Source: a virus (lineage: Duplodnaviria; Caudoviricetes). From it: 32,115 nucleotides of DNA. The stretch covers positions 1 through 32,115 of the IMG/VR virus record IMGVR_UViG_3300020175_001501. The stretch is one strand, 5' to 3'. The translations under genes and the position numbers were made by a program. The stretch's first letter is position 1; every line of letters begins with the position of its first letter. Below, in pieces: positions 11,032 to 29,981 of this stretch. Under the pieces are notes generated by a model that did not search any database, was not told where the DNA came from, and saw only the letters and a program-made list of their open reading frames with translations.

Positions 11032-11217
11032 TTATTTTTCTAAATTAGTTTGGTTTGTAATTTTTTTTCTAAAATCTTCATCAGTAAGATACAAAAAGAT
11101 AGATCGATCTGCAAGTTTTTGGAAAGAAAATTTACGTCTAACGCATTCAACTTTAAAATCATTAAAGAGATCCGTTTTTACTTTTACACTAGTTAGTGTC
11201 ATTGGTTTATTAGCCAT
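11032..11217 (-). CDS. small protein, possible ribbon-helix-helix DNA-binding protein
   Basis: LTSVKV strand followed by two predicted helices (LFNDFKVECV, SFQKLADRSIFLYL). Confidence 0.6.
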   Translation of the reverse strand: MANKPMTLTSVKVKTDLFNDFKVECVRRKFSFQKLADRSIFLYLTDEDFRKKITNQTNLEK

Positions 11218-13249: not shown

Positions 13250-13504
13250 TTACATTGATAGTGTTTCGTCCTTTAATTCTTCTCTTAGTTCTTTTGGTAA
13301 ACCTTCCTTTAAAATTTTACCTGAACTTGGGTCATAAAATACTGGAAGAGGCATTATAGCATCTTCATCTGTACCTGCAACAAATTTAGAAATTTTTCTT
13401 AAAATAACTCCTGATACAAATATATTCTTACCTTCTGAGTTAAGAATTGGAGTAGTTGCTTTTAAATCTACATTTAATTGAGGTTGTTGTTGTGATTGTT
13501 TCAT
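13250..13504 (-). CDS. hypothetical protein (84 aa)
   Basis: ORF between the clamp loader genes, translationally coupled. Confidence 0.75.
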   Translation of the reverse strand: MKQSQQQPQLNVDLKATTPILNSEGKNIFVSGVILRKISKFVAGTDEDAIMPLPVFYDPSSGKILKEGLPKELREELKDETLSM

Positions 13505-14418
13505 TACTTGTTAATTATTAAATTATTTATTAAACTCATTATATTAATTTCTTTATCTATTCTAAAATTAGCCTTATATTGATGGTCATTAATTAGAGCA
13601 GTTGCTGTACCTTCTTTATTGGGTAGAAATTTAACAGCGTTTTCGTATAAAAACCTAAATAATTCATCAAAATCATCAACATTAGCATCTGCTATTATTT
13701 GACGAATCTTGGTAAATGAAGGTTTATTTTGTGATAATTCAGATAATATTTTATCCATATAATTAGATGAAACTAATATTGTTTTATCTAATTTTAATGC
13801 ATTGTTTTGTGTAGATAATTGTATAGTATTAATACATTTACGTAAATCAGGGTAATATTGATTAACTAATGGTACTAAATCTTTTACATTATGCATTATC
13901 ATTTCTTCTTGTAAAATCCAATTTAAGTGTTTAGCAACATCTTTTTTAGTTGGAGGAACAATTTTAAGTACTTGACATCTTGATTGTAAAGGATCAATAA
14001 TACGTTCTACAAAATTACAAGTCATAATAAATCTTGTAGTACGTGAAAATGTTTCAATTATATTTCTAAGTGATGCTTGCGCTTGTATTGTAAGAAAATC
14101 CGCCTCATCCAAGATAACAACTTTAAGGGGTTTAAATGACGCAACAGACGCAAAACCAGAGACTTTATCCCTAATAGTTTCGATCCCACGCTCGTCAGAA
14201 GCGTTAATATAAATGTAATCACAATCTAAGTTTTTAATTATTAATTTTGCTAGTGTAGTTTTACCTGTACCAGCGGGTCCATAAAATATGAAATTTTGTA
14301 TATCATTCTGTTCTAAATATTTTGATATAACAGATTTTATATTTTCATTACCTACATAATTATCTAATTTAGTAGGTCTATATTTTTCTACTAGTAAACT
14401 ATTCTCCGTATTCACCAT
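13504..14418 (-). CDS. clamp loader AAA+ ATPase (RFC small subunit / T4 gp44-like)
   Basis: EKYRP, GPAGTGKTT Walker A, INASDERG, LDEAD Walker B, SRC motif. Confidence 0.95.
   Translation of the reverse strand: MVNTENSLLVEKYRPTKLDNYVGNENIKSVISKYLEQNDIQNFIFYGPAGTGKTTLAKLIIKNLDCDYIYINASDERGIETIRDKVSGFASVASFKPLKVVILDEADFLTIQAQASLRNIIETFSRTTRFIMTCNFVERIIDPLQSRCQVLKIVPPTKKDVAKHLNWILQEEMIMHNVKDLVPLVNQYYPDLRKCINTIQLSTQNNALKLDKTILVSSNYMDKILSELSQNKPSFTKIRQIIADANVDDFDELFRFLYENAVKFLPNKEGTATALINDHQYKANFRIDKEINIMSLINNLIINK
14058..14222 (-). CDS. candidate overprinted +1-frame ORF (54 aa, GTG start) inside the clamp loader gene
   Basis: Open +1 frame coinciding with a patch of atypical codons in the host gene. 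Confidence 0.3.
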   Translation of the reverse strand: MITFILTLLTSVGSKLLGIKSLVLRLLRHLNPLKLLSWMRRIFLQYKRKHHLEI

Positions 14419-14668
14419 AAATTGAGTATCTTTTAATTGGTTCTGGTTTTATTTCTACTTCAGTTGTTGATATTGCATATAACTCACTTTGTAATGGGGC
14501 TAATTTATAATCACCTTTAAAACCAGATTTAACCATATAAGCTTCTAATGCATCTGTTAATGTTGTATGTACCTTACCACCAGGTTCTTCTGTTACTAAT
14601 CTCCATTTATCTCCTGGGGGTACTCTACGAGCTATTAAAATTAAATTTTCTGTTATTTTTGTTTTCAT
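14399..14668 (-). CDS. hypothetical protein (89 aa)
   Basis: ORF directly after a promoter, probably leaderless. Confidence 0.75.
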   Translation of the reverse strand: MKTKITENLILIARRVPPGDKWRLVTEEPGGKVHTTLTDALEAYMVKSGFKGDYKLAPLQSELYAISTTEVEIKPEPIKRYSIYGEYGE

Positions 14669-14672
14669 TCCT

Positions 14673-14704
14673 ATAATATACGAAAATTAAGTGGGGGAGA
14701 CAAG
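14673..14704 (-). promoter_or_regulatory. promoter, 4 nt upstream of ATG 14668
   Basis: CTTG-N20-TATATTAT with TTCG. Confidence 0.7.
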
Positions 14705-14712
14705 CTCCCCCA
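14684..14712 (-). terminator. intrinsic terminator after the groES-groEL-Hc1 block
   Basis: Perfect 8-bp stem TGGGGGAG/CTCCCCCA, 5-nt loop, followed by CTTAATTT; lies just after the stop at 14718. Confidence 0.75.
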
Positions 14713-14717
14713 TTAAA

Positions 14718-14885
14718 TTATTTAGATTCTGCTACAGATGCTTTTTTATAATCTGTAATTACTCTTTTAATAGCTTGGGCTGCTTTTCTTGCAATCCCTT
14801 GACTTTTTTTAGTAGTACCACTATTGTTTTCTGCTAAGATATTGAAATTTTCTTCAATTACCTCAAAAATTTGATCTTTTGTCAT
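14718..14885 (-). CDS. histone H1-like (Hc1-family) small basic protein, 55 aa
   Basis: Not in the ORF track: MTKDQIFEVIEENFNILAENNSGTTKKSQGIARKAAQAIKRVITDYKKASVAESK. The K...ARKAAQ.IK......K pattern resembles Bacteroidetes Hc1-like proteins. Confidence 0.7.
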   Translation of the reverse strand: MTKDQIFEVIEENFNILAENNSGTTKKSQGIARKAAQAIKRVITDYKKASVAESK

Positions 14886-14914
14886 TTTTATTTATTTATT
14901 TATTAATTATTAAT

Positions 14915-16546
14915 TTACATCATTCCCATCATTGATGGGTCCATTGCTGGTTGTTGTTTATCATTGTTTTCATCTAAATCATTTACTACAGTACATTCTG
15001 TTAGTAAAACAGTACCTGCTACAGAAGCAGCATTTTCAAGTGCTAGTCTTGTTACTTTAGTAGGATCAATAATACCTGATTCTTTATAATCAATTACTTC
15101 TCCTTTATTAACATCTATCCCTGACCAATGATTATTACCTGAATCTACTAATTTGTATCTTCCAAATAACCCAGCTTCAACTTTATTGTATCCTGCATTA
15201 AGTAAAATTTGTTCAAATGGTTTACCACATGCTTCATATACAATTTTTGCACCTTCATTATCTATTTTTATACTTTCTCGGGCATAAAGTAAAGCAACAC
15301 CACCTCCTGGTAGGATTCCTTCTTCAATAGCAGCTTTTGTAGCATGTAATGCATCATCAACTCTATCTTTCTTTTCTTTTAACTCAATTTCAGTATTACC
15401 ACCAACATGAATAATAGCTACTCCACCTACAAACTTTGCTAATCTATTTTGTAACTGTTCTGTTTCATAAGGAGTTTGTGCATTATCAACTTGGCTTTGT
15501 AGATTATCAACTCTTTTGCTAATATCCTCTTCTGATCCTTTACCATCAACAATAGTTGTTGTTTCTTTTGTAATAGTAGCAGTACGAGCTTCACCAAACC
15601 AATCCCATGAAAATTTATCTAATTTCATGCCTTTTTGTTTATCAAATACTTGACCACCAGTCATTATAGCAATATCTTCTAATACTAATTTTCTCTTATC
15701 ACCAAATTCAGGTGCTTTAACAGCACATACATTAACAGTACCTCTCATTTTATTTACTATTAAAGTAGCTAATGCTTCATTATCAATATCTTCTGCAATT
15801 ATTAATAGTGATTTTCCTTCACTAGATACTGCTTCTAATATTGGTAATAATTCTTTTACAGAATTTAATTTTTGGTCTGCAATTAATACAACAGGATTTT
15901 CTAATACTGCTGACATTGTACTATTATCAGTAACAAAATAAGGGGATTTAAATCCTCTATCAAATTGCATACCTTCAACAGTTTCTAGATAAGTATCTCC
16001 AGTTTTTGATTCCTCAATATGAACAACACCTTCCATACCAACTTTTTCAAGTGCTGTTGCTATTAAAGTACCTACTTCTATATCATTATTAGCTGATATA
16101 GTTGCGATTTGTTCTAATTGACCTTCAGCTGATATATCTTCAGATATATTTTTTCTTAAAGTTTTAATTACTTCTTTAACTGCTTTATCAATATTACGTT
16201 TAATTTGTACAGCATTTTCATTTTTAGATAGATTGTCTAATCCTAAATTAATCATTTCTCTAGCTAATAATGTTGATGTAGTTGTACCATCCCCAGCTTT
16301 ATCTGCTGTTTGTACTGCTGCTTGTTTTACTAATTGAACCCCTAATTCTTCAGTTGGGTTTTTTAATGAGATGGATTTTGCTACTGTAACACCATCTTTT
16401 GTACTAGAAGGTATACCATCATCTCCTGCAATTACAACATTTCTTCCATTTGGGCCTAAAGTTGAAACAACAGCATCTGCTAGTATATTTATCCCTTTTA
16501 CAAGATCATTTCTAGATTCATCGCTAAATTGTATTTTTTTACTCAT
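14915..16546 (-). CDS. groEL: chaperonin GroEL
   Basis: TLGPNGRNV, TKDGVTVA, GDGTTT, EGMQFDRG, GIIDPTKV, Met-rich tail. Confidence 0.98.
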   Translation of the reverse strand: MSKKIQFSDESRNDLVKGINILADAVVSTLGPNGRNVVIAGDDGIPSSTKDGVTVAKSISLKNPTEELGVQLVKQAAVQTADKAGDGTTTSTLLAREMINLGLDNLSKNENAVQIKRNIDKAVKEVIKTLRKNISEDISAEGQLEQIATISANNDIEVGTLIATALEKVGMEGVVHIEESKTGDTYLETVEGMQFDRGFKSPYFVTDNSTMSAVLENPVVLIADQKLNSVKELLPILEAVSSEGKSLLIIAEDIDNEALATLIVNKMRGTVNVCAVKAPEFGDKRKLVLEDIAIMTGGQVFDKQKGMKLDKFSWDWFGEARTATITKETTTIVDGKGSEEDISKRVDNLQSQVDNAQTPYETEQLQNRLAKFVGGVAIIHVGGNTEIELKEKKDRVDDALHATKAAIEEGILPGGGVALLYARESIKIDNEGAKIVYEACGKPFEQILLNAGYNKVEAGLFGRYKLVDSGNNHWSGIDVNKGEVIDYKESGIIDPTKVTRLALENAASVAGTVLLTECTVVNDLDENNDKQQPAMDPSMMGMM

Positions 16547-16550
16547 TTTT

Positions 16551-16925
16551 TTATTTATTATTAATTTCAGTTAAATTTTTCTTATCTTCATTAGTTACCT
16601 CAGTTTCATCTAAAATATCAGATACATTTATCTCTGTAGCTACTTTAGCTAATACTTGATTTTCAGGTCCTACATAATATTCTTCACCATTAAATGGTAA
16701 TTTAGTAAAACCTTGAGTTGGTAAAACTACTTTATCTCCTACCTTTAAATGCATAGGAATTAGGTCACCATTTAGAGTATATCTACCCGTTCCGATAGCT
16801 ACAATTTCTCCAAATTCATTTTTTTCTTTACCCATATCAGGTACAATAATGTTACCGTGGATTTCTTCTTCGTTTTCAATAGGTTTAACGATAACCGCAT
16901 CAAATAGTGCTTCTAATTTATTCAT
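16551..16925 (-). CDS. groES: co-chaperonin GroES with acidic C-terminal extension
   Basis: LFDAVIVKP, GNIIVPD, GEIVAIGTG, LKVGDKV; start placed at ATG 16925 (MNKLEAL). Confidence 0.92.
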   Translation of the reverse strand: MNKLEALFDAVIVKPIENEEEIHGNIIVPDMGKEKNEFGEIVAIGTGRYTLNGDLIPMHLKVGDKVVLPTQGFTKLPFNGEEYYVGPENQVLAKVATEINVSDILDETEVTNEDKKNLTEINNK

Positions 16926-17226
16926 GATTAATATGATTTTTAATGTTATTTTCAATTGTTTTAAAACGATCTAAAAAATCGTTAAGGTTGGTATAATGTT
17001 CTTTAGTATGTAACTGTTCTTCACTTATTCTTTTTAATGCTTGTTCAAATTTTGCATGAAAGGTTAATGATTTTGAATAAGTTTTACTTTTTCCTGTAGA
17101 TCTAAAATGGTTTTTATCAGATGTTACTTTAATGTTAACTGTATAACAGTTTTCATCTTTAGTGATAAAATAAGGTTCCATCCATGGATCTTCAATAAGG
17201 GTTAGGGATTTAGGTTTTCTTGCCAT
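16918..17226 (-). CDS. hypothetical protein (102 aa)
   Basis: Start placed at ATG 17226 (MARKPKS), downstream of promoter 17253..17284. Confidence 0.75.
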   Translation of the reverse strand: MARKPKSLTLIEDPWMEPYFITKDENCYTVNIKVTSDKNHFRSTGKSKTYSKSLTFHAKFEQALKRISEEQLHTKEHYTNLNDFLDRFKTIENNIKNHINHE

Positions 17227-17252
17227 ATAACTTTTTATTATTAATATTGACG

Positions 17253-17284
17253 TCAATATACGAAAAAAATGTGGCTAGGACACG
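17253..17284 (-). promoter_or_regulatory. promoter for the ORF102-groES-groEL-Hc1 operon
   Basis: CGTG-N20-TATATTGA with TTCG; overlaps a 16-bp palindrome. Confidence 0.7.
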
Positions 17285-17291
17285 TTTTTTT
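17263..17291 (-). terminator. possible weak terminator after the sHSP gene
   Basis: A7-C-GTG-loop-CAC-A-T7 inverted repeat; the GC core is short. Confidence 0.35.
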
Positions 17292-17302
17292 ACAATTACT
17301 GT

Positions 17303-17725
17303 TTATTTAATTTTAATAGATTTTGGCTTAGCTTCCTCAGCTAAAGGTATAAAAATATCTAATAATCCATTTGTTAAAGATGCATCAATTTGTCCTAAAT
17401 CAAATTTAGGTGCAATTTTATATCTTAAATCAAATGATTTTTTAGATAAACCATTATGGATAGTTCCTTCATGGAATTTTTCTTCTTTTGGTTTTTTATA
17501 ACTTATTTTTAAAATATCTCCTTCAATATCGAGGATAACGTCTTTTTTAGTTAACCCAGTACAGGCAACTTCAAAATAAAGACCTTTATCATCAAAGTAA
17601 ATATTAAGGGGATGTGGTTGTTTTGAATTTAATGCTGGTGCAAACTGCGATTCAGCATTGAAGTGATTCCTAAATAGGATGTCGAAAGGACTAATATGTC
17701 TTTCTAAGATTTCTAATGTACTCAT
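17303..17725 (-). CDS. small heat-shock protein (Hsp20/IbpA-like)
   Basis: HPLNI, EVACTG, HNGLSKKSF, ASLTNGLLDI, PKSIKIK. Confidence 0.92.
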   Translation of the reverse strand: MSTLEILERHISPFDILFRNHFNAESQFAPALNSKQPHPLNIYFDDKGLYFEVACTGLTKKDVILDIEGDILKISYKKPKEEKFHEGTIHNGLSKKSFDLRYKIAPKFDLGQIDASLTNGLLDIFIPLAEEAKPKSIKIK

Positions 17726-17810
17726 ATCATTTTTGTTTTATGGAGCCGAAGCTTCCGATTAATTAATTATTTAAAAATATAACTTGTGCCCTAGCTACAA
17801 TGTTATTTTG

Positions 17811-17820
17811 TTATACATAT
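17811..17820 (-). promoter_or_regulatory. second intergenic motif ATATGTATAA
   Basis: Same 10-mer as 11248 and 31165, upstream of the sHSP leader. Confidence 0.45.
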
Positions 17821-17831
17821 ATAAATTTTTT

Positions 17832-18563
17832 TTACTGTTCATTTCTTACTAAAAAATATTCACTTGTTATGCCTAATCCTTCAGAAGTAAATTTTAAATT
17901 TATATAACCTTCTTGTGTTAATTTTAATACTCCCCCATCCATATCTTTATTAGAAGATAATATATCTTTAAAAATATTTGAATTAAAAGGTATTGATAAA
18001 TCATCTTCAAATTTACCTGGTGTTTGGTAAGTAATTTTATTAGCATAATTAGCATCATCTCCAAATAAAAATTCACACATTTTTACACCATCAATACTTT
18101 TAGTTGTTTTTACTAACATATGATCTACTTCAGATAAAGCATTTTTAGCTTTTATTAAAGAATCAATATCATCTATAGATAAATTAGTTTCAAGATTATA
18201 ACCATCTTCAGGATCTTCTAACCATGTATTACTACCAATTACTAGTATATCAGCTAATGAATAAGATAAATCAAAGTTTGAATCTGATATGTTAATTTTA
18301 GTGTATATTTTATGGGTTTTTTCAGGTTGGATTAATAAATCTCCATTAGTAATAGATATTAATTTATTTAATTTATCAGTATCAAAGATTCCTAATTCAC
18401 AATCTTCAAATGGAAAATTATTTAAATGTATTTTACATATTTTACCTTTTGATCCAGCATAAATAGTTAAAGTATTATCTTTAATTCTCCATTTAACAGT
18501 ATTATTTAGTCCTTTTAAAAAGTACTTATTAATGACAGATTGTAATGTATTTTTATTTATCAT
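17832..18563 (-). CDS. DNA polymerase sliding clamp (T4 gp45/PCNA-like)
   Basis: 243 aa; LGIFD..KL, Y.LAD..I, G...L.F, EYFLV patterns; directly downstream of the polymerase, with a clamp loader nearby. Confidence 0.75.
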   Translation of the reverse strand: MINKNTLQSVINKYFLKGLNNTVKWRIKDNTLTIYAGSKGKICKIHLNNFPFEDCELGIFDTDKLNKLISITNGDLLIQPEKTHKIYTKINISDSNFDLSYSLADILVIGSNTWLEDPEDGYNLETNLSIDDIDSLIKAKNALSEVDHMLVKTTKSIDGVKMCEFLFGDDANYANKITYQTPGKFEDDLSIPFNSNIFKDILSSNKDMDGGVLKLTQEGYINLKFTSEGLGITSEYFLVRNEQ

Positions 18564-18568
18564 AGGTT

Positions 18569-18599
18569 ATAATATACGAAAGTTATTTTATATTTCAAA
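18569..18599 (-). promoter_or_regulatory. promoter, 5 nt upstream of the clamp ATG
   Basis: TTTG-N19-TATATTAT with TTCG. Confidence 0.75.
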
Positions 18600-19568
18600 G
18601 GAATTTAATGAGTTTACATAAGGGTTTAATGATAAATCCCATTCTAAATCATTAAAAAACCCTTCTAATTTATTTAATAAAATTGAATCAAATACTTTTT
18701 GTCTATCAGCATAATTATCTAAAAATTGTTTTACTTTTTTAGGCATATCATGATCAAAAAAAGCTAATGCTTCTATTTTATATGGATTATCTTTTAAGTA
18801 AATCCATTTTACTTTATCTGCTTGAGTCATTAAGTTATGTTTTTTATCTAATTGCCATAAACTTAATAGATCATTATATCTAATAGCTGCTCTAACAGGT
18901 GCAGGTGCTCCTAAATTTCTTTGTGTTTTGCCTTCCTTTTTCTGACTAAGGGGTCTAAGTATTTCAGTAAACATTTCACCTGCGGCTTTACGTCCAGCAT
19001 ATTTATTTAGTTTTTTAATCATTGTAGGATTTCCTAATTGTGTTAAAGGAATATCCCCATTTAATATTTTTTCTTTAAAAGTTTTAATCTGTTTAGTAAT
19101 ACTTTCTTCTTTAACTCCCTTTAAAGTTTGTTGTAAAATGTTATTGAAAAATTTACCTAAAATTGGTGGGAAATTTGCTTTCATAAACTCTAGACCTTTT
19201 ATATCTAAAGTTTCTTTTGATATACCTTCTGTTTTAGTAATCCATTGTGCATAACGTCTTGTAGCCCTAAAATAAGCTGCACGTATTACACATTCAGTTT
19301 TCATTTTTAGCCTATTTTCTCTAATTACCCCAAAACTTTTAATAACTAATCTTTTATAGTCTTCATTAATAACATCTTCAGTTATTTCAGCTAATTTTTC
19401 TGTAATATTATCTTTTTCAATATCACTAAATTTTTTATCAAAATCAGGGTAAATATGTTTTAATACAGGACCTCCGTGAAAATAATTTGAATCTGTGTCA
19501 ACATAAGCACATAAATTCTTATCATCTTTATTACAAATCCACCAAGGAGTATCTTCTAAATGTCTCAT
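18588..19568 (-). CDS. polB: family B DNA polymerase, C-terminal subunit (motif C palm + thumb)
   Basis: AYVDTDS (motif C), K.E, RRYA, IKGLE. Confidence 0.9.
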   Translation of the reverse strand: MRHLEDTPWWICNKDDKNLCAYVDTDSNYFHGGPVLKHIYPDFDKKFSDIEKDNITEKLAEITEDVINEDYKRLVIKSFGVIRENRLKMKTECVIRAAYFRATRRYAQWITKTEGISKETLDIKGLEFMKANFPPILGKFFNNILQQTLKGVKEESITKQIKTFKEKILNGDIPLTQLGNPTMIKKLNKYAGRKAAGEMFTEILRPLSQKKEGKTQRNLGAPAPVRAAIRYNDLLSLWQLDKKHNLMTQADKVKWIYLKDNPYKIEALAFFDHDMPKKVKQFLDNYADRQKVFDSILLNKLEGFFNDLEWDLSLNPYVNSLNSFEI

Positions 19569-19951
19569 TAATATTTTTCGTATGATTTTTCTTCAACTAA
19601 ACCTGATTCTGTTAAAATGTTTATTTCTTTTTTAACATCACATCTTTTATCATTAGTAATGTACACAGATCTTGCTAATTCTACAAATTTTTCACTAAAA
19701 TCTTTACTTCTTTCACATTCTCTAATGTCATCTTCAATAGTCCATAATTGACCATTAATTTTAGATAAATTTAAATATAATTCTTGAATTTCTGGTCCAT
19801 ATTTGTCAAATAAATCATGTACAAATGGATTTAGTTCATTAAATTCATTATTAATATTGACTAATTTATCTTCATCTGTTATATTTAACATTTTTAATTC
19901 TAGAATTGATATTTTATCTAGTAGTTCTCCGTTTGATATTTCTATTTTCAT
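19568..19951 (-). CDS. DUF6165-like coiled-coil protein
   Basis: ISNGELLDKISILELK, LWTIEDDIR, LARSVYITNDKR, VEEKSY. Confidence 0.75.
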   Translation of the reverse strand: MKIEISNGELLDKISILELKMLNITDEDKLVNINNEFNELNPFVHDLFDKYGPEIQELYLNLSKINGQLWTIEDDIRECERSKDFSEKFVELARSVYITNDKRCDVKKEINILTESGLVEEKSYEKY

Positions 19952-20148
19952 TTGTTTGTTAGTGTTATTTGAAAAGTTATTTTATTAATTGTAAATCTAA
20001 ATACTCCTTGTTTTAGACATTTTTTAAACATAATTTCTTGTGACTCACTCCAAGACTCACTTAATTTTATTAATTCTTCTTTTTCAATTAATTTACCATT
20101 AGCTTTAATTAGCATATTTTGTCTAATTGATTGTTTTTTTAATGTCAT
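19948..20148 (-). CDS. hypothetical protein (66 aa)
   Basis: ATGA-coupled at both ends. Confidence 0.7.
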   Translation of the reverse strand: MTLKKQSIRQNMLIKANGKLIEKEELIKLSESWSESQEIMFKKCLKQGVFRFTINKITFQITLTNK

Positions 20149-21914
20149 ATTTCTAATTTTATTTCGTCCCTTAATACTTTATTTAAAAAGGTATTAGCAC
20201 ATAATGCACTTTCCTGTATAATTCTTTGTCCTGTTAGTGTAATAGCTTGGCTAATTAAAAAATCAGGTAATCCATATCTAAATGTTGGTAAAGCTGTAGC
20301 TCCATATAGTGAATTAAGTAAGATTTTCATTGTATACTGCATTAAATAATAATATTCACCTTCTTCTTTATTACCCGCTTTATAAGCATCCTTCATTTTG
20401 TTTTTATATACAACTCTTTCATCAAACCAAGTATTTAATATAGTTGATAAAACTGATTCTTTATCCTGTCTAAAAAATGCTCCATTAGCTGATACAGATA
20501 ATTTATTATCTTCTATATATTTAATTAATTTAGGTGGTTTAATAAAAGTTTGTTGACCTTTTATATTTCTAATTTCAATTTGCCTATTAGAATCCATTTC
20601 TTTTAAATCGTTAATAGCCAATCTACTATTACGTCTATCTTCATCTTTGATGTAACCGACTAAAGTTTCTCTACCTATGTTAAGTGACATTATTATACAT
20701 GGATATAGTGAAACTAAATCCAAATCAAACATATGATCATATAATCCAGCTTTAGGGCAAAATAAATAACCCCCAGCATATGTTTCTTTTTTACCTAATG
20801 GTTGTTTACCCTGATATGGTCTAGCAGGTGGGATAATATTTTGGGATAATAAATAAGCAGATATAGCTCCATCTTGAGTTACACTGTTTGAATAAACTTC
20901 ACTGTAATTGTGTTTGCCTTTATGTGCTAAGTTTTTTGTTAATGCTATATAATCTAACTTTTCATCTAATAATTTAAGTATTTCAACATCACGAAAATTA
21001 TATTCTATAAATTTATGCAAATCAGTTTCAAATAATTGATCTAAATTACCTTCATATTCAATTTTTTTAACACCAGCATATTTTTCACCAATAGCATCTA
21101 GTTTATAACTTGGTTCATCTTTCCAACTATATTTTTTATGTAAACGAATATAATCTAAAGATTCAATACCTACAATATCTACAAATTGATCTCTTTTAGT
21201 CCAACTAGAAACCCATTTACCTGTTTCTCTATGTTTCCACCAAGATGCTTTTTCAGTCTTAATCTGACCTGTAGGAGACAACATTTCAGCATAATCTTTA
21301 CCTAAAACCTTACATATTCTATAATATAAATAAGGAATATCAAAATAATCTGAATTATAACCAATTAAAATATCAGGATAATTAGTAATAAACATTTCAA
21401 TAAATTTACCAAGTAATTCTTTTTCGGTTTTACAGGGTATTATTTTTTTCTTTCTTTGTTTATCCCAAGTAGTAGTAGGTATTAAACCCTTTTTATCCCA
21501 TACTAAAATAGCCCATTCATCATCTTTTTTATCCCACCAAGCAATAGAAGTAATAGGCATAGGTGCATTTTCAATATATTCTTTAGTTAAAGCCCCTCCT
21601 ATTTCACACTCAATATCAAAAAACATTTCTCTATGGCCTGTAGAAGGGGTATCATTAGTTCCATATTTTTCAATTAAAAATTTCTGGTGAGGTTTTATAT
21701 CATGGTAATGTAGACCATGATCTTTTCTATTATAATCAGATGTTTTTCGTAACTTTTCACCTTCTAAACCAGTAAATTCACCATTAGGATCTTCAATATA
21801 TGAAGTATTTAACCATTCAAAAGAATTATAACCACCTTCATCCCATAAATTAATTTTATAGAGATTACTATCATATTTACCTATTCTTGTTGCATAACAT
21901 TTAATATAACTCAT
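20145..21914 (-). CDS. polB: family B DNA polymerase, N-terminal subunit (3'-5' exonuclease, motifs A and B)
   Basis: FDIE (ExoI), GYNSDYFD (ExoII), YNFRD (ExoIII), DLVSLYP (motif A), KILLNSLYG (motif B); ends before motif C. Confidence 0.93.
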   Translation of the reverse strand: MSYIKCYATRIGKYDSNLYKINLWDEGGYNSFEWLNTSYIEDPNGEFTGLEGEKLRKTSDYNRKDHGLHYHDIKPHQKFLIEKYGTNDTPSTGHREMFFDIECEIGGALTKEYIENAPMPITSIAWWDKKDDEWAILVWDKKGLIPTTTWDKQRKKKIIPCKTEKELLGKFIEMFITNYPDILIGYNSDYFDIPYLYYRICKVLGKDYAEMLSPTGQIKTEKASWWKHRETGKWVSSWTKRDQFVDIVGIESLDYIRLHKKYSWKDEPSYKLDAIGEKYAGVKKIEYEGNLDQLFETDLHKFIEYNFRDVEILKLLDEKLDYIALTKNLAHKGKHNYSEVYSNSVTQDGAISAYLLSQNIIPPARPYQGKQPLGKKETYAGGYLFCPKAGLYDHMFDLDLVSLYPCIIMSLNIGRETLVGYIKDEDRRNSRLAINDLKEMDSNRQIEIRNIKGQQTFIKPPKLIKYIEDNKLSVSANGAFFRQDKESVLSTILNTWFDERVVYKNKMKDAYKAGNKEEGEYYYLMQYTMKILLNSLYGATALPTFRYGLPDFLISQAITLTGQRIIQESALCANTFLNKVLRDEIKLEI

Positions 21915-22478
21915 TTATATAATGGTTTCAACTTTATAAAACTTAGCTAACTCTTCAGTTTTAAAAAATTGGGATAAATCTGGTCTAAAATAATTAATTG
22001 ATTTCATTACTTTTCTATCTCTTGATCTATAGACAATATACCTTCCTTTCGCAATCTTCTCAAAATGACAGGCCTCACCTTGTTCCTTACTTCTTTGGCT
22101 GACGGTCTGTATGGCTTCTTCTTCAGTTTTACAAGCTTTTGACATATTGCTTGCTTGTACTTCTTGATAGGCAGGCCATATCTTGCTTTTAAGGCCATGT
22201 AACATAGTACCGTTCCCAAGGGAAACATAAGTAATATCGCACAAAGCGTCCAAAACTTCCACAATGTCGCCTCGTTCGCAAGCTTCTTTATACTCTTCAA
22301 GTTCTTCGAGGATAAAATCATAGACAAATTGCCATTCTTTTTTAGCAGGGATTGTTGGTTCATAATTGTTGGGTTTATTAAAAGTGTTATTAAATCTTTC
22401 AACTTCATCAACAAAAGGGACAAGACCATTTGCTTCTGGGTCAAATACTTGGAAATCTAATTTTAATTGTTTACTCAT
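21915..22478 (-). CDS. all-alpha NTP pyrophosphohydrolase (MazG/PRA-PH/DR2231-like)
   Basis: EELEE, EVLDALCDITY, EV.ASNMSK, KVMKS. Confidence 0.85.
   Translation of the reverse strand: MSKQLKLDFQVFDPEANGLVPFVDEVERFNNTFNKPNNYEPTIPAKKEWQFVYDFILEELEEYKEACERGDIVEVLDALCDITYVSLGNGTMLHGLKSKIWPAYQEVQASNMSKACKTEEEAIQTVSQRSKEQGEACHFEKIAKGRYIVYRSRDRKVMKSINYFRPDLSQFFKTEELAKFYKVETII
22007..22429 (-). CDS. candidate overprinted +1-frame membrane protein nested in the MazG-like gene
   Basis: +1 frame open for about 145 codons (TTG 22444, first ATG 22429); hydrophobic segment followed by a basic tail; host codons avoid +1 stops. Confidence 0.5.
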   Translation of the reverse strand: MVLSLLLMKLKDLITLLINPTIMNQQSLLKKNGNLSMILSSKNLKSIKKLANEATLWKFWTLCAILLMFPLGTVLCYMALKARYGLPIKKYKQAICQKLVKLKKKPYRPSAKEVRNKVRPVILRRLRKEGILSIDQEIEK

Positions 22479-23070
22479 TATCTTTTTTATTTATTTTATT
22501 TTGGAACTTCATAAATGATCCTTCTTTATCATTTGTTAAACCTCCTACTGTATTTATTTTATCATCTTCTTCTGACCAAGGTCCTGGTTCGTCTGCTCTT
22601 TCCAAAAAATTTACAACATCAGGATCATTTACCCAATAAGCTTCAGCCGCATTAGGATCATCTATCTCGTCTTCTTTTGCTAAATAATCTTGTATAGCTT
22701 TACTATCACTTCTTTCCCAAGGATATACAATCCACTCATCACTAACTTCTTTAGCCCATAAAGTAGGAACAAAAGAGGAGGTATGAGGTTTATAATGTAA
22801 TACAGCATGATATAACCCAGGAGCTTTTTCTAACGTTTTTCCTGAATCACAAATATCATCTATTACTAAAGTATTTGTAAATACATTATTAACATAGGGT
22901 AAATTTAGTTTATGTGATATAATTACTGCAGGTATCAAACCTCCTCTTGCTAAACCGGTTACTGATTCTATTTGTGGGCATTCTAACATTATTTTTTTGC
23001 TTAAAAGATCTGTTAGTTGTTGTATATCATCCCAACTCAAATGTATTTTGTTATCTATTGTTACTGCCAT
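22471..23070 (-). CDS. type I purine phosphoribosyltransferase (Gpt-like) with acidic C-terminal extension
   Basis: LSWDD, ARGGLIPA, VIDDICDSGKT (PRPP loop), WIVYPWE. Confidence 0.9.
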   Translation of the reverse strand: MAVTIDNKIHLSWDDIQQLTDLLSKKIMLECPQIESVTGLARGGLIPAVIISHKLNLPYVNNVFTNTLVIDDICDSGKTLEKAPGLYHAVLHYKPHTSSFVPTLWAKEVSDEWIVYPWERSDSKAIQDYLAKEDEIDDPNAAEAYWVNDPDVVNFLERADEPGPWSEEDDKINTVGGLTNDKEGSFMKFQNKINKKDNE

Positions 23071-23762
23071 TATATATTATGTCCTCCGTTATTGATCTTT
23101 AAAGAATCAAAGAATTCCTTTCTTGCTAAATTAGTATTTTGTCTAAATACTCCTGATGCTTTTGTAGTTACCATTGCAGCACCTTGGTGCTTAACTCCCC
23201 TACAACTTACACAATTATGTGTACCTACAATAGTAACAATAACACCTCTATTACCTTCTGTAATTTTAGATACTGCATTATGAATTGCAGACGTTAATTG
23301 TTCTTGTATTGCACCCCTTCTACCAAATAATTCAACAATTCTATTTAATTTACTCAAACCAATTACTTGACCATTTTCTCCTGGTATGTAACCAATATGA
23401 ACTACCCCTCCAATTGTTTGGTGGTGATGTGAACACATTGAAGTTAATGGTATATTACGTTCTATAACTATACCATCATAACCATCTGATGGGAATGATG
23501 TAATTGGAGACATCGCTGTGTATCTACCAGCCCATAAATCATTTACATATGCTTTAGCTACACGTCTTGGTGTATCATTTGAATTAGGATCATTTTTCCA
23601 ATCACAATCTAATGCAGTTAGAAATTCTCCATAAGCTTTAGTAGCTTTTTTTATCATTTCTTCCTTTTGTTTATCATTTAAAGGAAAATTGGTTGCAACC
23701 CCATTTGCAAAACCTTTTTGTACAACTTCTAAATCTTTATGAATGTTTTTATGTTTGCTCAT
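23070..23762 (-). CDS. folE: GTP cyclohydrolase I
   Basis: TPRRVAK, SMCSHH, GLSKLNR, QEQLT, HNCVSCRG. Confidence 0.95.
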   Translation of the reverse strand: MSKHKNIHKDLEVVQKGFANGVATNFPLNDKQKEEMIKKATKAYGEFLTALDCDWKNDPNSNDTPRRVAKAYVNDLWAGRYTAMSPITSFPSDGYDGIVIERNIPLTSMCSHHHQTIGGVVHIGYIPGENGQVIGLSKLNRIVELFGRRGAIQEQLTSAIHNAVSKITEGNRGVIVTIVGTHNCVSCRGVKHQGAAMVTTKASGVFRQNTNLARKEFFDSLKINNGGHNI

Positions 23763-23886
23763 TTATATAAATTTTTAGTTTATCAATTAATACTAATACA
23801 TCGTCTGGGTCCATTGTTATAGCACAGCATGTATTTACATTTTCTTCTATATCCTCCAATATACGAAGGGCTTCTTGCTTATCCAA
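23749..23886 (-). CDS. possible small protein (45 aa, TTG start: (M)DKQEALRILEDIEENVNTCCAITMDPDDVLVLIDKLKIYINEQT)
   Basis: Not in the ORF track; fills the queE-folE gap and overlaps the folE start. Confidence 0.5.
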   Translation of the reverse strand: MDKQEALRILEDIEENVNTCCAITMDPDDVLVLIDKLKIYINEQT

Positions 23887-23887
23887 A
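23856..23887 (-). promoter_or_regulatory. promoter upstream of folE-PRTase-MazG-polB
   Basis: TTTG-N20-TATATTGG with TTCG. Confidence 0.7.
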
Positions 23888-23890
23888 TCT

Positions 23891-24673
23891 TTATACACAC
23901 CTCTCGGTATTAAATGCGATAATGTGTGAACGACCTGTAAATCTCCAACCTCTGTCTCTTACAAAATTCATTACTTCAGGGTATGATTCCATTAAAGATT
24001 CCCTAGTATCCCCAGCAGGCATAGCCCAAACTTTATTATCTGGTATACTACATTCTTTTATAAATGTTTCTACCTCTTCTATCATAGATAAATTCTTATC
24101 CAATACAGGTTTAATATGGTAATCAGAATGATATTCAATAGATTGTTTTATTGCTTCATAATTTAATCTTAATCTATTATGTGTTTTTATCATTTTTTCG
24201 TCCACATCTTTTCCTTGAGGAGTAACAGCACCCAAAACGGGAACGCTATTACTGAACTTAGGAGAAATGCTAAGAAGATTAATGGGATAATCAGTAGGGA
24301 GGAAATGAGATCCCTCAGTTTCAATAGTAATAAAAATGTTTCTTTCATGAGCAAAATGAGTTAATTCATTTACTAGTTTAGGATGCATAGTAGGTGAACC
24401 CCCAGTTAGCATCATTTCTTTAATATGAGGATGTTGATCGTAGGCATCTATAATATCTTGAAAAGAATATGTTCCTTTTTCTGGGTGGATACTTGTGTAC
24501 CAACTATCACACCATCCTCCTTCACCAAAGAAACATCTGTGAGTACAGCCTGTTGTTCTAACTACAATAGTAGGATAACCTTGTCTACTACCTTCTGATT
24601 GTACGGCTGTGTATACTTCTAATACGGGGAGGGTTTTATTATAGTCCTCTATTCTTTTTAACTGTTTGTGCAT
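23891..24673 (-). CDS. queE: 7-carboxy-7-deazaguanine synthase (radical SAM)
   Basis: E.Y..VQSEG...G.P...VRT.GC, CTHRC...WCDS, LTGG.P, IETEG, SISPK. Confidence 0.92.
   Translation of the reverse strand: MHKQLKRIEDYNKTLPVLEVYTAVQSEGSRQGYPTIVVRTTGCTHRCFFGEGGWCDSWYTSIHPEKGTYSFQDIIDAYDQHPHIKEMMLTGGSPTMHPKLVNELTHFAHERNIFITIETEGSHFLPTDYPINLLSISPKFSNSVPVLGAVTPQGKDVDEKMIKTHNRLRLNYEAIKQSIEYHSDYHIKPVLDKNLSMIEEVETFIKECSIPDNKVWAMPAGDTRESLMESYPEVMNFVRDRGWRFTGRSHIIAFNTERCV
24190..24348 (-). CDS. candidate overprinted +1-frame membrane peptide (52 aa) inside queE
   Basis: ATG-started MKETFLLLLKLRDLISSLLIIPLIFLAFLLSSVIAFPFWVLLLLKEKMWTKK; atypical host codons over this span. Confidence 0.4.
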   Translation of the reverse strand: MKETFLLLLKLRDLISSLLIIPLIFLAFLLSSVIAFPFWVLLLLKEKMWTKK

Positions 24674-24717
24674 ATGTTCATTTTTTTAAGTGGTTTTTCA
24701 TTCACTGTTATAACTTA

Positions 24718-25182
24718 TTATTCGCTGTAATAGGCAGCATTTTTTCCATGTTCCATGAATTTAACTTTAGTGACTCTGACTCTATTATCAGTTTCAGTTT
24801 TTACAAATTCATTTATATTACGATAAATATATTCAGCAAACTTCTCTGCACCAGTAGCTTCAATTACTCTTACTTGAGCTACTCCTGCTTTATCCATTTG
24901 TTGAAATGCTTTAAGATTAGGATCATCTTCTGCTACTATCAAAGTATGATCAAACATATAATCCATCCAAGCTTTAGGTTGTTTACCATCAATTAAGGTT
25001 TTGGCACGTTTCATTCCACCAAAATCCCAAACCCAATTTCTATCATCTAATTCACCCTCAAAGTAAACTTTAAATGATATACCATAACCATGTACAAATC
25101 TACAGTGTGTTGTTTCAGCTTTCCATTGACGAAACACTGTACTAAATCCGTCAAAAACTTTACTTGATTGAAATTTACCCAT
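24718..25182 (-). CDS. queD: 6-carboxy-5,6,7,8-tetrahydropterin synthase
   Basis: HCRFVHGY, WVWDFG, FDHT, GAEKFA, EH..N.A; que cluster context. Confidence 0.9.
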   Translation of the reverse strand: MGKFQSSKVFDGFSTVFRQWKAETTHCRFVHGYGISFKVYFEGELDDRNWVWDFGGMKRAKTLIDGKQPKAWMDYMFDHTLIVAEDDPNLKAFQQMDKAGVAQVRVIEATGAEKFAEYIYRNINEFVKTETDNRVRVTKVKFMEHGKNAAYYSE

Positions 25183-25420
25183 TATAAAAATTTAAAATTT
25201 GTTGTTCTGTTTGTAACCCAACTAACCTATTTTTTTCTGATCCATTTTCTAATAATACTAAAGTTGGGATGTTTCTTACACTATGTTTAACTGATAATTC
25301 ATTATCATTATCTACGTCTATTTTTTCGTAATTAATTTTATTACCTAAAGATTCTATAATAGGACCTAAGGTTTTACATGGACCACACCATGATGCACTA
25401 AAATAAAGTATTTTTTTCAT
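25175..25420 (-). CDS. trxA: thioredoxin
   Basis: WCGPC active site, VRNIPT. Confidence 0.93.
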   Translation of the reverse strand: MKKILYFSASWCGPCKTLGPIIESLGNKINYEKIDVDNDNELSVKHSVRNIPTLVLLENGSEKNRLVGLQTEQQILNFYNG

Positions 25421-25435
25421 ATTTTTTATTTATTG

Positions 25436-25636
25436 TTATACTAATTCTTCTATTATTCCTATTACTTCACTTAATATAAGTAAAGCTGTTGCAGTAACCA
25501 AACTAAAAGGGATAAAGAAATACCCTATTATTCGAACACCAGATTTAAAAAAACTTATTTGTTGATGTAATTTTGGATCTGGTAGTTTATCTATTTTTGA
25601 TTCTGTTATATAATCTTCTCCTTTATAATTTTTCAT
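25436..25636 (-). CDS. small membrane protein
   Basis: Hydrophobic C-terminal half. Confidence 0.7.
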   Translation of the reverse strand: MKNYKGEDYITESKIDKLPDPKLHQQISFFKSGVRIIGYFFIPFSLVTATALLILSEVIGIIEELV

Positions 25637-25640
25637 AATT

Positions 25641-26465
25641 TTATTTTTCCCATTTTTCTAATAAAGTTATTACGTTCTCTCTTGCTACTTCCCAAGTAAC
25701 TGGTCCTGTTTCATCTGCATAATCTATAGGATCAGGTCTTCCTAATTTTATAAATGCTTCAATACGTTCTACTGATGAAGCTGATTTATAATCTGAATAC
25801 CATTTCCAAGCATTTGTTTCTGGTCTGTGGTAATGTTTAATTGGTTTATATGATGTGTGTGTTCTTTTATATACTTCATCAAATTCAATATCTAAAACAC
25901 CACATAAATATTCTCCATCTTGTAAAATACCAAATTTATCAGTATCTAAATAAGGGGTAAAATATCCTACTCTTTCATGATCCCAATTTCCTTCTCTAAA
26001 TGCTTTATCATCTGCATCTCTAAATTCTTGTCTACAATCAGGATAAACAGCATGATCACCTGCGTGAATACCCAGGGCAATATTACAATTTTCTTCTGTT
26101 TTATTTGCTATAGATAAAGCTACTGCTTGTGTAATAGAAGCAAATATTTTATTTCTATTAGGTACAACTGTTTCTTTCATATTATCTTGTTCATAATGTC
26201 CTTCAGGTACATCATCTCCACCTTCAACTAGAGCTGAATCTAGTAAACCTACTAACCCGTCTAATTTAATTTGTTTATAATTTACTTTATGACCTTTATC
26301 TGATAGGAAATTAATTAGAGATTGAGCTTTTTCTAATTCTACTTTGTGTTTTTGACCATAGTCAAATGAAATACCTGTTACAGTATCATATTCACTGATA
26401 GCTCTTAACAATAGGGTGCTACTATCCATTCCACCACTTAACGAAACTACTACATGTTTTGCCAT
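25641..26465 (-). CDS. queC: 7-cyano-7-deazaguanine synthase
   Basis: SGGMDS PP-loop, FDYGQKH, VPNRN, YPDCR. Confidence 0.93.
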   Translation of the reverse strand: MAKHVVVSLSGGMDSSTLLLRAISEYDTVTGISFDYGQKHKVELEKAQSLINFLSDKGHKVNYKQIKLDGLVGLLDSALVEGGDDVPEGHYEQDNMKETVVPNRNKIFASITQAVALSIANKTEENCNIALGIHAGDHAVYPDCRQEFRDADDKAFREGNWDHERVGYFTPYLDTDKFGILQDGEYLCGVLDIEFDEVYKRTHTSYKPIKHYHRPETNAWKWYSDYKSASSVERIEAFIKLGRPDPIDYADETGPVTWEVARENVITLLEKWEK

Positions 26466-26467
26466 AT

Positions 26468-26656
26468 TTATTTAAATTTAATTTTTTGCCAGGTATTATG
26501 CGTATAGGCTAACGCTTGTTTAAATTTGCATTTTATATATAATCCAATATACGAAAAAATTGTTGTGATTCCAAACCCTCCTAAAATAAGAGTCCAAATA
26601 TTTGGGTGATAGTGCTCTCCACAAAGCCCTAGTGCATGTCTTATAAATTCTGCCAT
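26468..26656 (-). CDS. small putative membrane protein (62 aa)
   Basis: GLCGEHYHP motif followed by a hydrophobic segment; contains the queC promoter. Confidence 0.65.
   Translation of the reverse strand: MAEFIRHALGLCGEHYHPNIWTLILGGFGITTIFSYIGLYIKCKFKQALAYTHNTWQKIKFK
26544..26575 (-). promoter_or_regulatory. internal promoter upstream of queC
   Basis: TTTG-N20-TATATTGG with TTCG. Confidence 0.7.
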
Positions 26657-26663
26657 ATTATTA

Positions 26664-26861
26664 TTAGTCTTCTTCTACAAATTCTACGTCTCCGTAATCA
26701 TCAATTGGTTTATCTCTTACTAAGTCCCAATCTGCATCATCTATAATTTCTTGTTGGAGATCTTCATCACCTGTTTTCCACTTTGCTACTTCATCTTCTG
26801 TTAAGATATATTCTTCCCATCTGAAGTTTGCGTAATTTACTGTTCTTGTTAGTTTTGCCAT
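26664..26861 (-). CDS. small acidic hypothetical protein
   Basis: 65 aa, strongly D/E-rich. Confidence 0.7.
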   Translation of the reverse strand: MAKLTRTVNYANFRWEEYILTEDEVAKWKTGDEDLQQEIIDDADWDLVRDKPIDDYGDVEFVEED

Positions 26862-26864
26862 AAC

Positions 26865-27056
26865 TTATTTATTAAAAATTTCTTGTACTCTAAAATATTC
26901 ATCTAAAAATTCTCTAGTATATAAAAATACTTCTTGATTATTAAATTCTAATAATCTTTTTTTATAAGGTTGTTTTTTAAGTATAGCATAAGCATTAACT
27001 TTTAATCCTGTGCCATTTTTGTCTGCATGACCTGTGTAATCATAAAGTGATATCAT
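26865..27056 (-). CDS. hypothetical protein (63 aa)
   Basis: ORF coupled (ATGA) to the TGT-like gene. Confidence 0.7.
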   Translation of the reverse strand: MISLYDYTGHADKNGTGLKVNAYAILKKQPYKKRLLEFNNQEVFLYTREFLDEYFRVQEIFNK

Positions 27057-28521: not shown

Positions 28522-28722
28522 TTATTTGCGCGAAGTTTTTAACCAATCTAACCAAAATCCTATTGCTACTATTACATTTAGCCCAATAGAAGATGCAATT
28601 TCTAATAAATCATGGAAATCATGTATAGATAAATGAATATGACCTACAACCCAAAAAGGTATAGCTAATTGTTGGCTAATCCAAATTAATAAAAATTTAA
28701 TAAATTTTAGTAGTTTCGTCAT
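28522..28722 (-). CDS. small membrane protein (66 aa)
   Basis: Two hydrophobic segments around a His-rich GHIHLSIH loop. Confidence 0.7.
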   Translation of the reverse strand: MTKLLKFIKFLLIWISQQLAIPFWVVGHIHLSIHDFHDLLEIASSIGLNVIVAIGFWLDWLKTSRK

Positions 28723-29971
28723 TTAAATCATTGTAACCTTCTATTTGAGACGATAAATGTATGTATTCTAATTTTAGATTTTCTAATCTTTTAGGAGAAT
28801 CATCAAAAGTACCTGCTACTCTTGGGTCTTCAAACATATCTATTTGTTCTTTAACATCTATAATTTCTTTTTTTAGTAATTCTAATTTATCTAATTTACC
28901 ATCTTTATTTAAATCATATTGTTCTAAATCTTTTGAATTTACCCAAACTAAATCTTCAGGTAAATCAGCACTATCCATTTCTGCTACTTTTTCATAATGT
29001 TCCCCTGTATTACCATTTTGGCCTATAATGTTTATTCTTTCTTCAGCTTCATCTTCTTTAAAATCTGATATAGGGTATGATTTATTAAATTCCATCCCTT
29101 CAGGAACAGACATTTTTACTTCAACTTCTTCTCCATATAGATTATCTCTATATTTTTTAGAAGGATAAGCTTGTGCAAAAGCAAAATTAGCAGCTACAAC
29201 TAATGAAATTGCTAATGGATCAAATACAAAAATTATAATAAGTAATAGTATATTAATAATTTTATCCATAGGTATACCGGTTAAACCCGATAAATACTGC
29301 AGAGGTCCTAATTCTGCAGCGATTTCATTGTTACTTTCTAGTTCTAATATAGATAATTGATATTTTTGAAGTGAATCTGCTGCTATTGTTCGTTTTTCAT
29401 ATACATTTTTACGATTTTCTTCTTCAGTTTCAATACGTTTTTGTGATAGTCTTAATTCTGTTGTAGAAATAGTTTGTCTAAACCCAGTAGATGATGTTGT
29501 ATCTTTAACCTGGATTGAACTTGCTTTAGCATTTGATAAAATTGATATATTTTTTGATATTCTTTCTAATTCTTTATCAAATCTAATTACATCTTCTTCG
29601 TAAAATGATTTTTTATTTTCTAAAAATTTAATTTCATTTTCAGTCATACTTAATTTACTATAAGTATCTTGATAAGCTGCACTTAAAAACCCATAAATAC
29701 CCATACTAGTAATTAATACTAATACTATAGTTGCTATAGATAAATAAATTCTTAATGTTTTATTAATTGTATCCCAATATTGATATAAAAGTGAAGCTGT
29801 AACTAATTTAGCAAATTCTAATGAACCTGCCATTATAATAACTTGAAATTGTGCTCCAGCAAATAACTTGCTTAATCCATAAACTGAATAGAATGCCGCA
29901 GATGCACTTACTGATAAAGCAGAAAATGCAATGAGAAATGGAAACATTCCTTTTTTAATATTCTTAAACAT
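28697..29971 (-). CDS. multi-pass membrane protein with a long coiled coil (424 aa)
   Basis: Three N-terminal hydrophobic segments, coiled coil, ELGPL..L motif, IFVFDPLA segment; start placed at ATG 29971 downstream of the promoter. Confidence 0.8.
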   Translation of the reverse strand: MFKNIKKGMFPFLIAFSALSVSASAAFYSVYGLSKLFAGAQFQVIIMAGSLEFAKLVTASLLYQYWDTINKTLRIYLSIATIVLVLITSMGIYGFLSAAYQDTYSKLSMTENEIKFLENKKSFYEEDVIRFDKELERISKNISILSNAKASSIQVKDTTSSTGFRQTISTTELRLSQKRIETEEENRKNVYEKRTIAADSLQKYQLSILELESNNEIAAELGPLQYLSGLTGIPMDKIINILLLIIIFVFDPLAISLVVAANFAFAQAYPSKKYRDNLYGEEVEVKMSVPEGMEFNKSYPISDFKEDEAEERINIIGQNGNTGEHYEKVAEMDSADLPEDLVWVNSKDLEQYDLNKDGKLDKLELLKKEIIDVKEQIDMFEDPRVAGTFDDSPKRLENLKLEYIHLSSQIEGYNDLNDETTKIY

Positions 29972-29981
29972 AGTTCTAATT

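Follow-up and report, generated by a model that had tools for sequence, protein, structure and literature searches.

The window analysed here, a 32,115-nucleotide stretch of virus DNA (IMG/VR record IMGVR_UViG_3300020175_001501; Duplodnaviria; Caudoviricetes), carries open reading frames (ORFs) nested in the +1 frame of three enzyme genes, and comparison with related phages indicates that these comprise one near-certain and two probable-to-possible nested genes. The host genes lie on the minus strand and encode a MazG-like/PRA-PH nucleotide pyrophosphohydrolase (21915..22478, 187 amino acids; PF01503, E 3e-10; phrog_671, E 1e-28), the radical-SAM enzyme QueE (23891..24673, 260 amino acids; PF04055; phrog_2076, E 1.5e-49) and a clamp-loader AAA+ ATPase (13504..14418, 304 amino acids; phrog_168, E 1e-74). 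The reading that we favour, with moderate confidence, is that the three +1 frames encode small basic inner-membrane proteins that would be translated internally and would act on the host during replication rather than time lysis. An initial annotation of the window had proposed a systematic set of hidden membrane-active proteins serving lysis timing, superinfection exclusion or anti-defence. Its overprinted-gene interpretation is supported by stop avoidance conserved in relatives, but its extent was overstated, since three of the 38 testable genes are involved, together with a fourth in relatives that is truncated here. By these comparisons, the layer of nested frames is recurrent, not systematic.

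The three +1 open frames named in that annotation are all present. Their stop-free runs, likewise on the minus strand, measure 149 codons in the MazG-like gene (22456-22010), 55 in the clamp loader (14225-14061) and 56 in queE (24360-24193), and the local codon shift that had been described is seen as a raised G+C content at third codon positions (GC3) at each run, the MazG-like gene having a value of 0.27. As had been noted, the folE, small heat-shock protein (sHSP) and DUF1599 genes meet +1 stops early, with runs of 24, 25 and 33 codons. Run lengths were compared with three null models of 3000 draws each, including genome codon use and within-gene synonymous permutation. The 149-codon MazG run was reached in 0/3000 draws under genome codon use, in 1/3000 under synonymous permutation and in 0/3000 under the third null, and in 0-1 of 3000 after a window-wide correction. 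The synonymous permutation suggested with the initial annotation thus places MazG beyond chance and leaves the clamp loader and queE within the null. Comparable chance runs had been overlooked in GroEL (59 codons), a glycosyltransferase (59) and a nuclease (56), and the window holds 9 runs of at least 50 codons against 5.5-6.0 expected (p=0.06-0.10). By itself, the window sequence supports only the MazG frame.

Among relatives, whose loci were retrieved with the host proteins (for each gene the 80 best, out of 553, 594 and 592 confirmed matches), +1 stops are depleted in all three genes. The observed and expected numbers of stops per distinct copy were 0.50/7.20 for MazG (n=118), 1.48/5.85 for the clamp loader (n=93) and 1.19/3.72 for queE (n=106), with values near expectation in the flanks of the same genes; 105/118, 51/93 and 50/106 copies, respectively, were fully open. 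For +1-stop avoidance, after thinning to <95% nucleotide identity, these genes occupy the top ranks both among 27 genes and among the 38 (of 51) for which 10 or more copies were available. In the MazG patch, the avoidance of NTA codons (TTA/CTA, ATA and GTA) is specific to those before a purine, with frequencies before purine and pyrimidine of 0.05 vs 0.54 for Leu, 0.02 vs 0.62 for Ile and 0.06 vs 0.42 for Val, a pattern not found in control genes. A tree test that allows for kinship compared parsimony events, counted as gains of A over other synonymous changes, at stop-making and at harmless sites. Stop-making changes were rarer in MazG (6/48 vs 24/29, p=9e-5), in queE (13/56 vs 40/33, p=1e-5) and in allele B of the clamp loader (3/32 vs 6/9, p=0.015), these p-values being nominal because the patch limits and clade B were chosen after the data had been seen. 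After correction over 24 segments the MazG and queE results remain significant. The 18 flank, control or extra-candidate segments include no significant deficit, and in six of them the bias is significant in the opposite direction. Antisense and +2 frames were rejected as a cause, as they are not open; the in-register antisense frame keeps 1.8-2.5 stops per copy and its loss of stops is a by-product only. Plain synonymous diversity (pS) is uninformative here because AT bias caps it. The relatives therefore support the initial annotation strongly for MazG and well for queE and clamp allele B, but allele A, the one in the window, is too little diverged for the test (p=1). Run lengths within the null and frames not conserved in related phages had together been named as evidence against nested genes: the former holds for the clamp loader and queE, but relatives do keep the frame open for queE and clamp allele B.

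The MazG-embedded frame (22007..22363, minus strand; 118 amino acids, ATG start) is almost certainly a real gene, judging from its conservation. The 105 open homologues are stop-free over host residues 39-146, and 78/80 MazG loci have an open +1 stretch of 120-149 codons, the remaining two showing a GC3 of 0.12 and many +1 stops. The likely start is ATG 22363 and not TTG 22444, because 89/105 open copies have a stop upstream, at host residue 26. This ATG, at host Tyr39, is kept in 104/105 open copies and lost in 5/6 copies with at least 6 stops, and the two Asn codons that precede it end in T in only ~69%. Several rare codons are near-fixed in 94 open copies (GTG 84, TGC 90, GGG 86, TCC 80, GCC 82) and preserve +1 Trp, Ala, Gly, Pro and Pro, whereas changes silent in both frames (TTA/CTA, TTG/CTG) vary across open copies, which argues for constraint on a protein. 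The enzyme itself is intact, with both acidic motifs kept in 79/80 metagenome copies; these 80 loci were selected with the +1 protein and served solely to check the survival of the MazG frame, which persists in 77/80, one other being cut by a contig end. Four MazG copies at 58-66% identity carry 6-10 +1 stops; two of these form the deepest split of the midpoint-rooted MazG tree, near the base of which there is another pair of closed copies. The +1 gene is distributed more narrowly than its host gene, and closure of the most distant copies fits an enzyme frame that predates the +1 frame. The 118-amino-acid frame is also intact in Flavobacterium phage immuto (vB_FspM_immuto, Immutovirus, MW353176), the closest cultured match to the MazG-like protein (75%), together with a queE +1 frame of ~50 codons; neither is annotated. 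Only these two of the three frames can be tested in immuto, because it has a family A polymerase and is absent among the 12 best clamp-loader matches listed, all of <40% identity.

The frame embedded in queE (24190..24348, minus strand) starts at ATG 24348, encodes a very hydrophobic product of 52 amino acids, and is quite probably a real gene. The 50/106 copies that are fully open over residues 105-160 compare with 0.7% expected. In relatives the ORF length is 38-63 amino acids and the product is loosely conserved, with a mean column identity of 53%.

The clamp-loader gene, as indicated by segment identities and trees, is a recombination mosaic among relatives, in which other segments also recombine. 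Two open alleles, A and B, each cluster on the tree of the patch and scatter on that of the flank (8 vs 24 label changes). Allele B, fairly likely to be a real gene, is found in 29 copies, starts with an ATG at host residue 46, encodes 85-86 amino acids and has various non-stop codons at its stop-capable sites. For allele A of the window (14058..14222, minus strand; 54 amino acids with an Arg-rich end), the probability of being a real gene appears evenly balanced. It is carried by 10 copies, that of the window among them, and stays open from host residue 65 to 119; its patch has a GC3 of 0.42 vs 0.05-0.08 on both sides. From an AT-rich sister group it is separated by 23 AT-to-GC synonymous differences, none of another kind, and 2 host residues, in an unrooted comparison that does not fix the direction of change. 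NCG codons, which give Arg in +1, are in the majority at 4/14 sites in A and 6/22 in B vs 7/792 elsewhere. The one-way synonymous changes and the dominance of NCG suggest building or decay in place rather than import. One close relative (L020/L024) has a clamp loader 89% identical to that of the window and shares allele A, but its MazG +1 frame is closed, which makes it a natural control.

A profile search of 1.84 billion proteins with the MazG product returned 28 matches, and the 25 newly listed ones were mostly embedded frames or frameshift chimeras, as judged by eye. One match, the 74-amino-acid protein P0060, reaches 45.8 bits, where 5000 block shuffles gave no more than 24.2, and retains the W-x-F-W, P-x-G-T, L-K-A-R-Y pattern of the MazG product. 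P0060 contradicts 25/60 of the invariant MazG middle bases, a count that is 0-1/51 in three embedded homologues and 7/51 in a chimera. Because of these conflicts it cannot encode MazG in the other frame, and it probably represents a version that has escaped the MazG gene. Its cluster contains one further member. In the ESM Atlas no usable match was found for the MazG product, and P0060 met only sub-0.9 hypothetical clusters.

The predicted MazG product consists of a basic N-terminal part, a charge-free hydrophobic segment at about residues 37-58 that includes Pro-x-Gly-Thr, and a very basic C-terminal part. Among 75 aligned products, residues 37-58 are charge-free in 66, with a net charge of +6 before and +15 after the segment, and Pro48, Gly50 and Thr51 are kept in 66, 68 and 71. 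A structural model of low confidence (predicted local distance difference test, pLDDT, 69; predicted template modelling score, pTM, 0.24) is all-helical with a break at residue 47, and this low-pTM model found no match with Foldseek in the PDB. The three window products matched no Pfam or PHROG family, lysis families included, and the 75 copies gave only scattered weak matches. The best 19-residue hydropathy values of the products (2.25, 1.86 and 2.83) are largely those expected from the frame, in agreement with the caveat of the initial annotation that hydrophobicity is a default of +1 frames; the excess for queE is 0.49 and control windows reach 0.64. Arginine is a clearer added signal than hydrophobicity, with an excess in the +1 C-termini of 0.27/0.03, 0.10/0.03 and 0.13/0.05 vs about 1:1 in controls.

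We propose that T-rich third codon positions would make the +1 frame leucine-rich, that few synonymous changes would then clear the +1 stops, and that selection would maintain the open frame. The frames would be translated by internal initiation on operon mRNA, which we infer because no copy of the promoter-like motif TTCGTATAT, described below, lies in a patch. The MazG product may fold into a helical hairpin in the membrane that is interrupted at Pro-x-Gly and leaves its two basic ends on the inner side. The products would sit in the host inner membrane and act on the membrane or a membrane protein in the early or middle, replication phase, with a putative role in host takeover, exclusion or counter-defence. 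Such a role is favoured over lysis timing because the overprinted genes serve replication and nucleotide metabolism and immuto encodes a separate holin; by this argument, of the three roles first proposed, lysis timing seems the least probable. More tentatively, though not improbably, this may be a widespread group of large Flavobacteria-type double-stranded DNA (dsDNA) phages in which the catalytic cores of replication and nucleotide enzymes act as a nursery for overprinted membrane proteins, whose rival alleles within a gene would sweep through genomes by intragenic recombination, some being lost and at least one freed to stand alone.

A number of results weigh against these proposals. In the single sequence, with 51 genes tested, the clamp-loader run (p=0.016, 0.055 and 0.029) and the queE run (p=0.073, 0.069 and 0.137) are within chance, and roughly half of the clamp-loader and queE copies are not fully open. 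The clamp B p-value of 0.015 does not survive correction over the 24 segments; allele A with its sisters, of low divergence, gave 3/9 vs 1/2 events, and all clamp copies pooled gave p=1. As for start codons, allele A has no ATG, only GTG; the queE ATG is kept in 88/96 copies and, with a value of 0.967, ranks 16 of 64 comparable sites, so that it does not stand out from controls; and the MazG ATG is one of 4/64 comparable sites that are fully fixed. No called protein was found among 284 candidates for the queE +1 alignment, no stand-alone copy in the 318 loci covered by a six-frame search (which took in extra GroEL loci used nowhere else), and no DNA locus of P0060 in viral, metagenome or genome contigs. 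The hydrophobicity comes mostly with the frame, and no family, fold or Atlas match points to a function. The early or middle timing comes from gene content only, and the RNA-library material over 21500-25000 consists of assembled contigs, from which frame, strand and level are unreadable.

Some of these points would be explained if only the MazG gene were real and the clamp-loader and queE frames were by-products of GC3-rich tracts, spread by recombination, that lower TTA, ATA and GTA and thereby open the frame passively. We regard this as unlikely, although the non-significant single-sequence p-values fit it, as do the mosaicism of the clamp gene throughout, with its 8 vs 24 label changes between patch and flank trees, the scarcity of NTA in the clamp patch before pyrimidines too (Leu 0.12), and, for allele A, the lack of an ATG and the uninformative tree test. 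What such tracts do not account for is that queE and clamp B lose stop-making, not harmless, NTA gains and that NCG reaches a majority at sites in both clamp patches; nor does an alien donor fit the 23 AT-to-GC changes of allele A, with no A/T-to-A/T change and 2 host residues. A different view takes the products as real but as lysis or lysis-timing proteins, which would block a cell-wall enzyme or permeabilise the membrane like phiX174 E and leviviral Sgl. The nested architecture, as in E within D and the sgl genes, and the basic-hydrophobic-basic anatomy agree with it, but the host genes belong to replication and nucleotide metabolism, immuto carries, at other sites, an annotated holin and a putative chitinase, and no Pfam or PHROG lysis family was matched, so that this role appears rather improbable.

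For MazG, the +1 frame could instead be entered by slippage or frameshifting at an A-run near host residues 45-47, giving a fusion of the MazG N-terminus to the +1 product. The database proteins P0006, P0018, P0028, P0032 and P0033 do join the two near the A-run, and over residues 27-56 no stop-capable site sets the 5' limit of the frame. However, the A-run ranges in length from 2 to 8 and is 8 in only 33/105 open copies, other fusions switch elsewhere, as indel errors would, and the upstream ATG is kept in 104/105 copies, which makes this route very unlikely. We give still less weight to a constraint at the nucleotide level, an RNA structure or DNA site with no second protein, which is largely refuted for MazG. 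The observed/expected ratio of CpG is indeed higher in the patches of MazG (0.80) and the clamp loader (0.93) than elsewhere (0.34-0.68), and clamp B has a slight folding advantage over its permutations (mean z -1.17), but folding z values are near zero for MazG (0.34, -0.11), queE (0.13) and clamp A (-0.49; window z 0.21), Rfam gave no match, doubly synonymous sites are free to vary, and P0060 is a homologue at the protein level without the host frame.

Small membrane proteins overprinted on enzyme genes, the reading preferred here, would extend a kind already known in phages from phiX174 E and leviviral sgl, with long nested genes known mainly from tiny phages under size limits. In the dsDNA phage lambda, the lipoprotein Rz1 is encoded in +1 within the gene of its partner spanin, Rz; here, in contrast, the host genes encode a pyrophosphohydrolase, QueE and a clamp loader, with no i-spanin, and the hydrophobic segment of the MazG product begins after residue 32. 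The phiX174 lysis gene E is wholly nested in gene D and has a Leu-rich membrane segment (PMC8227390). The likeness lies in a wholly nested de novo gene and in the conversion of host-frame third-position T to second-position T, producing a Leu-rich segment. The present frames differ in occurring in a large dsDNA phage, with contigs of relatives reaching 191 kb, in being several and in replication enzymes, and in having products that match no family. Among active leviviral sgl genes, 21/33 overlap rep in its +1 frame, and there are genomes with two (PMC7693330); this repeated independent birth of small membrane proteins in +1 of an essential enzyme, missed by annotation, parallels what we propose. 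Those genes belong to single-stranded RNA phages and mostly occupy less conserved parts of Rep, whereas the frames here cross catalytic cores (the MazG acidic motifs and the clamp-loader DEAD/Walker B region), and these phages have a holin of their own. Annotated overlaps in DNA viruses are mostly short, with a median of 15.6 nt (PMC8903798). Titles and abstract openings in a literature collection largely without subscription journals contained no report of nested genes in the MazG, queE or clamp-loader genes of these phages.

If several selected, fully nested genes in the enzyme cores of a large phage are confirmed, gene callers would be missing some of its membrane-protein repertoire, and 'synonymous' sites in core genes of this kind would not evolve neutrally. 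Relatives that have or lack each frame provide natural controls, and cultured immuto, grown on Flavobacterium sp. LMO8, carries the best case and would allow a direct test of de novo gene birth and product function. Should the nursery idea be true, a single phage population would show de novo genes being born, spreading, being lost and becoming independent of their host genes.

All 51 called genes of the window are on the minus strand; the DNA is AT-rich, with a GC3 of ~0.08-0.17 in most genes, and the sequencing runs that contain it are marine. The gene content comprises glycosyltransferases, a PD-(D/E)XK nuclease, the clamp loader, GroEL/GroES, sHSP, a split family B polymerase, the MazG-like pyrophosphohydrolase, folE, queE, queD and queC. 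The polymerase, at 18588-21914, is divided into genes of 589 and 326 amino acids with two small genes between them, and 21915-27853 contains a 7-deazaguanine set (folE, queE, queD, queC and a 266-amino-acid phrog_19058 gene) with a phosphoribosyltransferase (PRTase) and the MazG-like gene, as in immuto. The motif TTCGTATAT has 12 copies vs 0.37 expected, between window positions 745-30009, every one on the coding strand and none within the three +1 patches. One copy (23859..23867, minus strand) lies upstream of folE-PRTase-MazG-polB and another (14676-14684, minus strand) ahead of the clamp-loader unit; TTTG often occurs ~16-18 bases before the motif, and several copies are within the 3' ends of upstream genes. 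It presumably acts as a promoter, and we take it to resemble the Bacteroidetes housekeeping promoter, a resemblance that suggests a flavobacterial host. The Bacteroidetes-type A(-3) start rule was not demonstrable for the called genes of the window.

A fourth candidate lies in the membrane-protein gene 28697-30001, where a +1 ORF of 26 codons (29452..29532, minus strand) is a shortened form of a frame that runs ~45-62 codons from an ATG in most relatives. In 18/21 copies the frame is open from host residue <=138 to 202-219, and in 18/21 there is an ATG at residue 157. NTA codons occur at 4/119 sites before a purine vs 59/122 before a pyrimidine, compared with ~62% vs 56-63% in the flanks. The truncation in the window is possibly a recent loss.

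Other candidates were rejected. The long runs in GroEL, the glycosyltransferase and the nuclease had no conserved signal in relatives. Within GroEL (14915-16546), 41% of 68 copies are open across residues 336-375, where 1% is expected, but the tree test was not significant; there is an ATG near residue 334, and the stretch is possibly a lineage-limited fifth case. A 61-amino-acid gene (11032-11217) has an open +1 run of 45 codons (p=0.003 with genome codon use as the null), stop-free over residues 27-58 in 26/33 copies, but it is short and its tree test was not significant. sHSP and residues 215-265 of queC also failed the tree test. In the 5' part of the sHSP gene (17303-17725) and at polymerase residues ~410-450 (20145-21914), unusual codons are strongly conserved with no alternative sense frame open, which suggests a nucleotide-level element.

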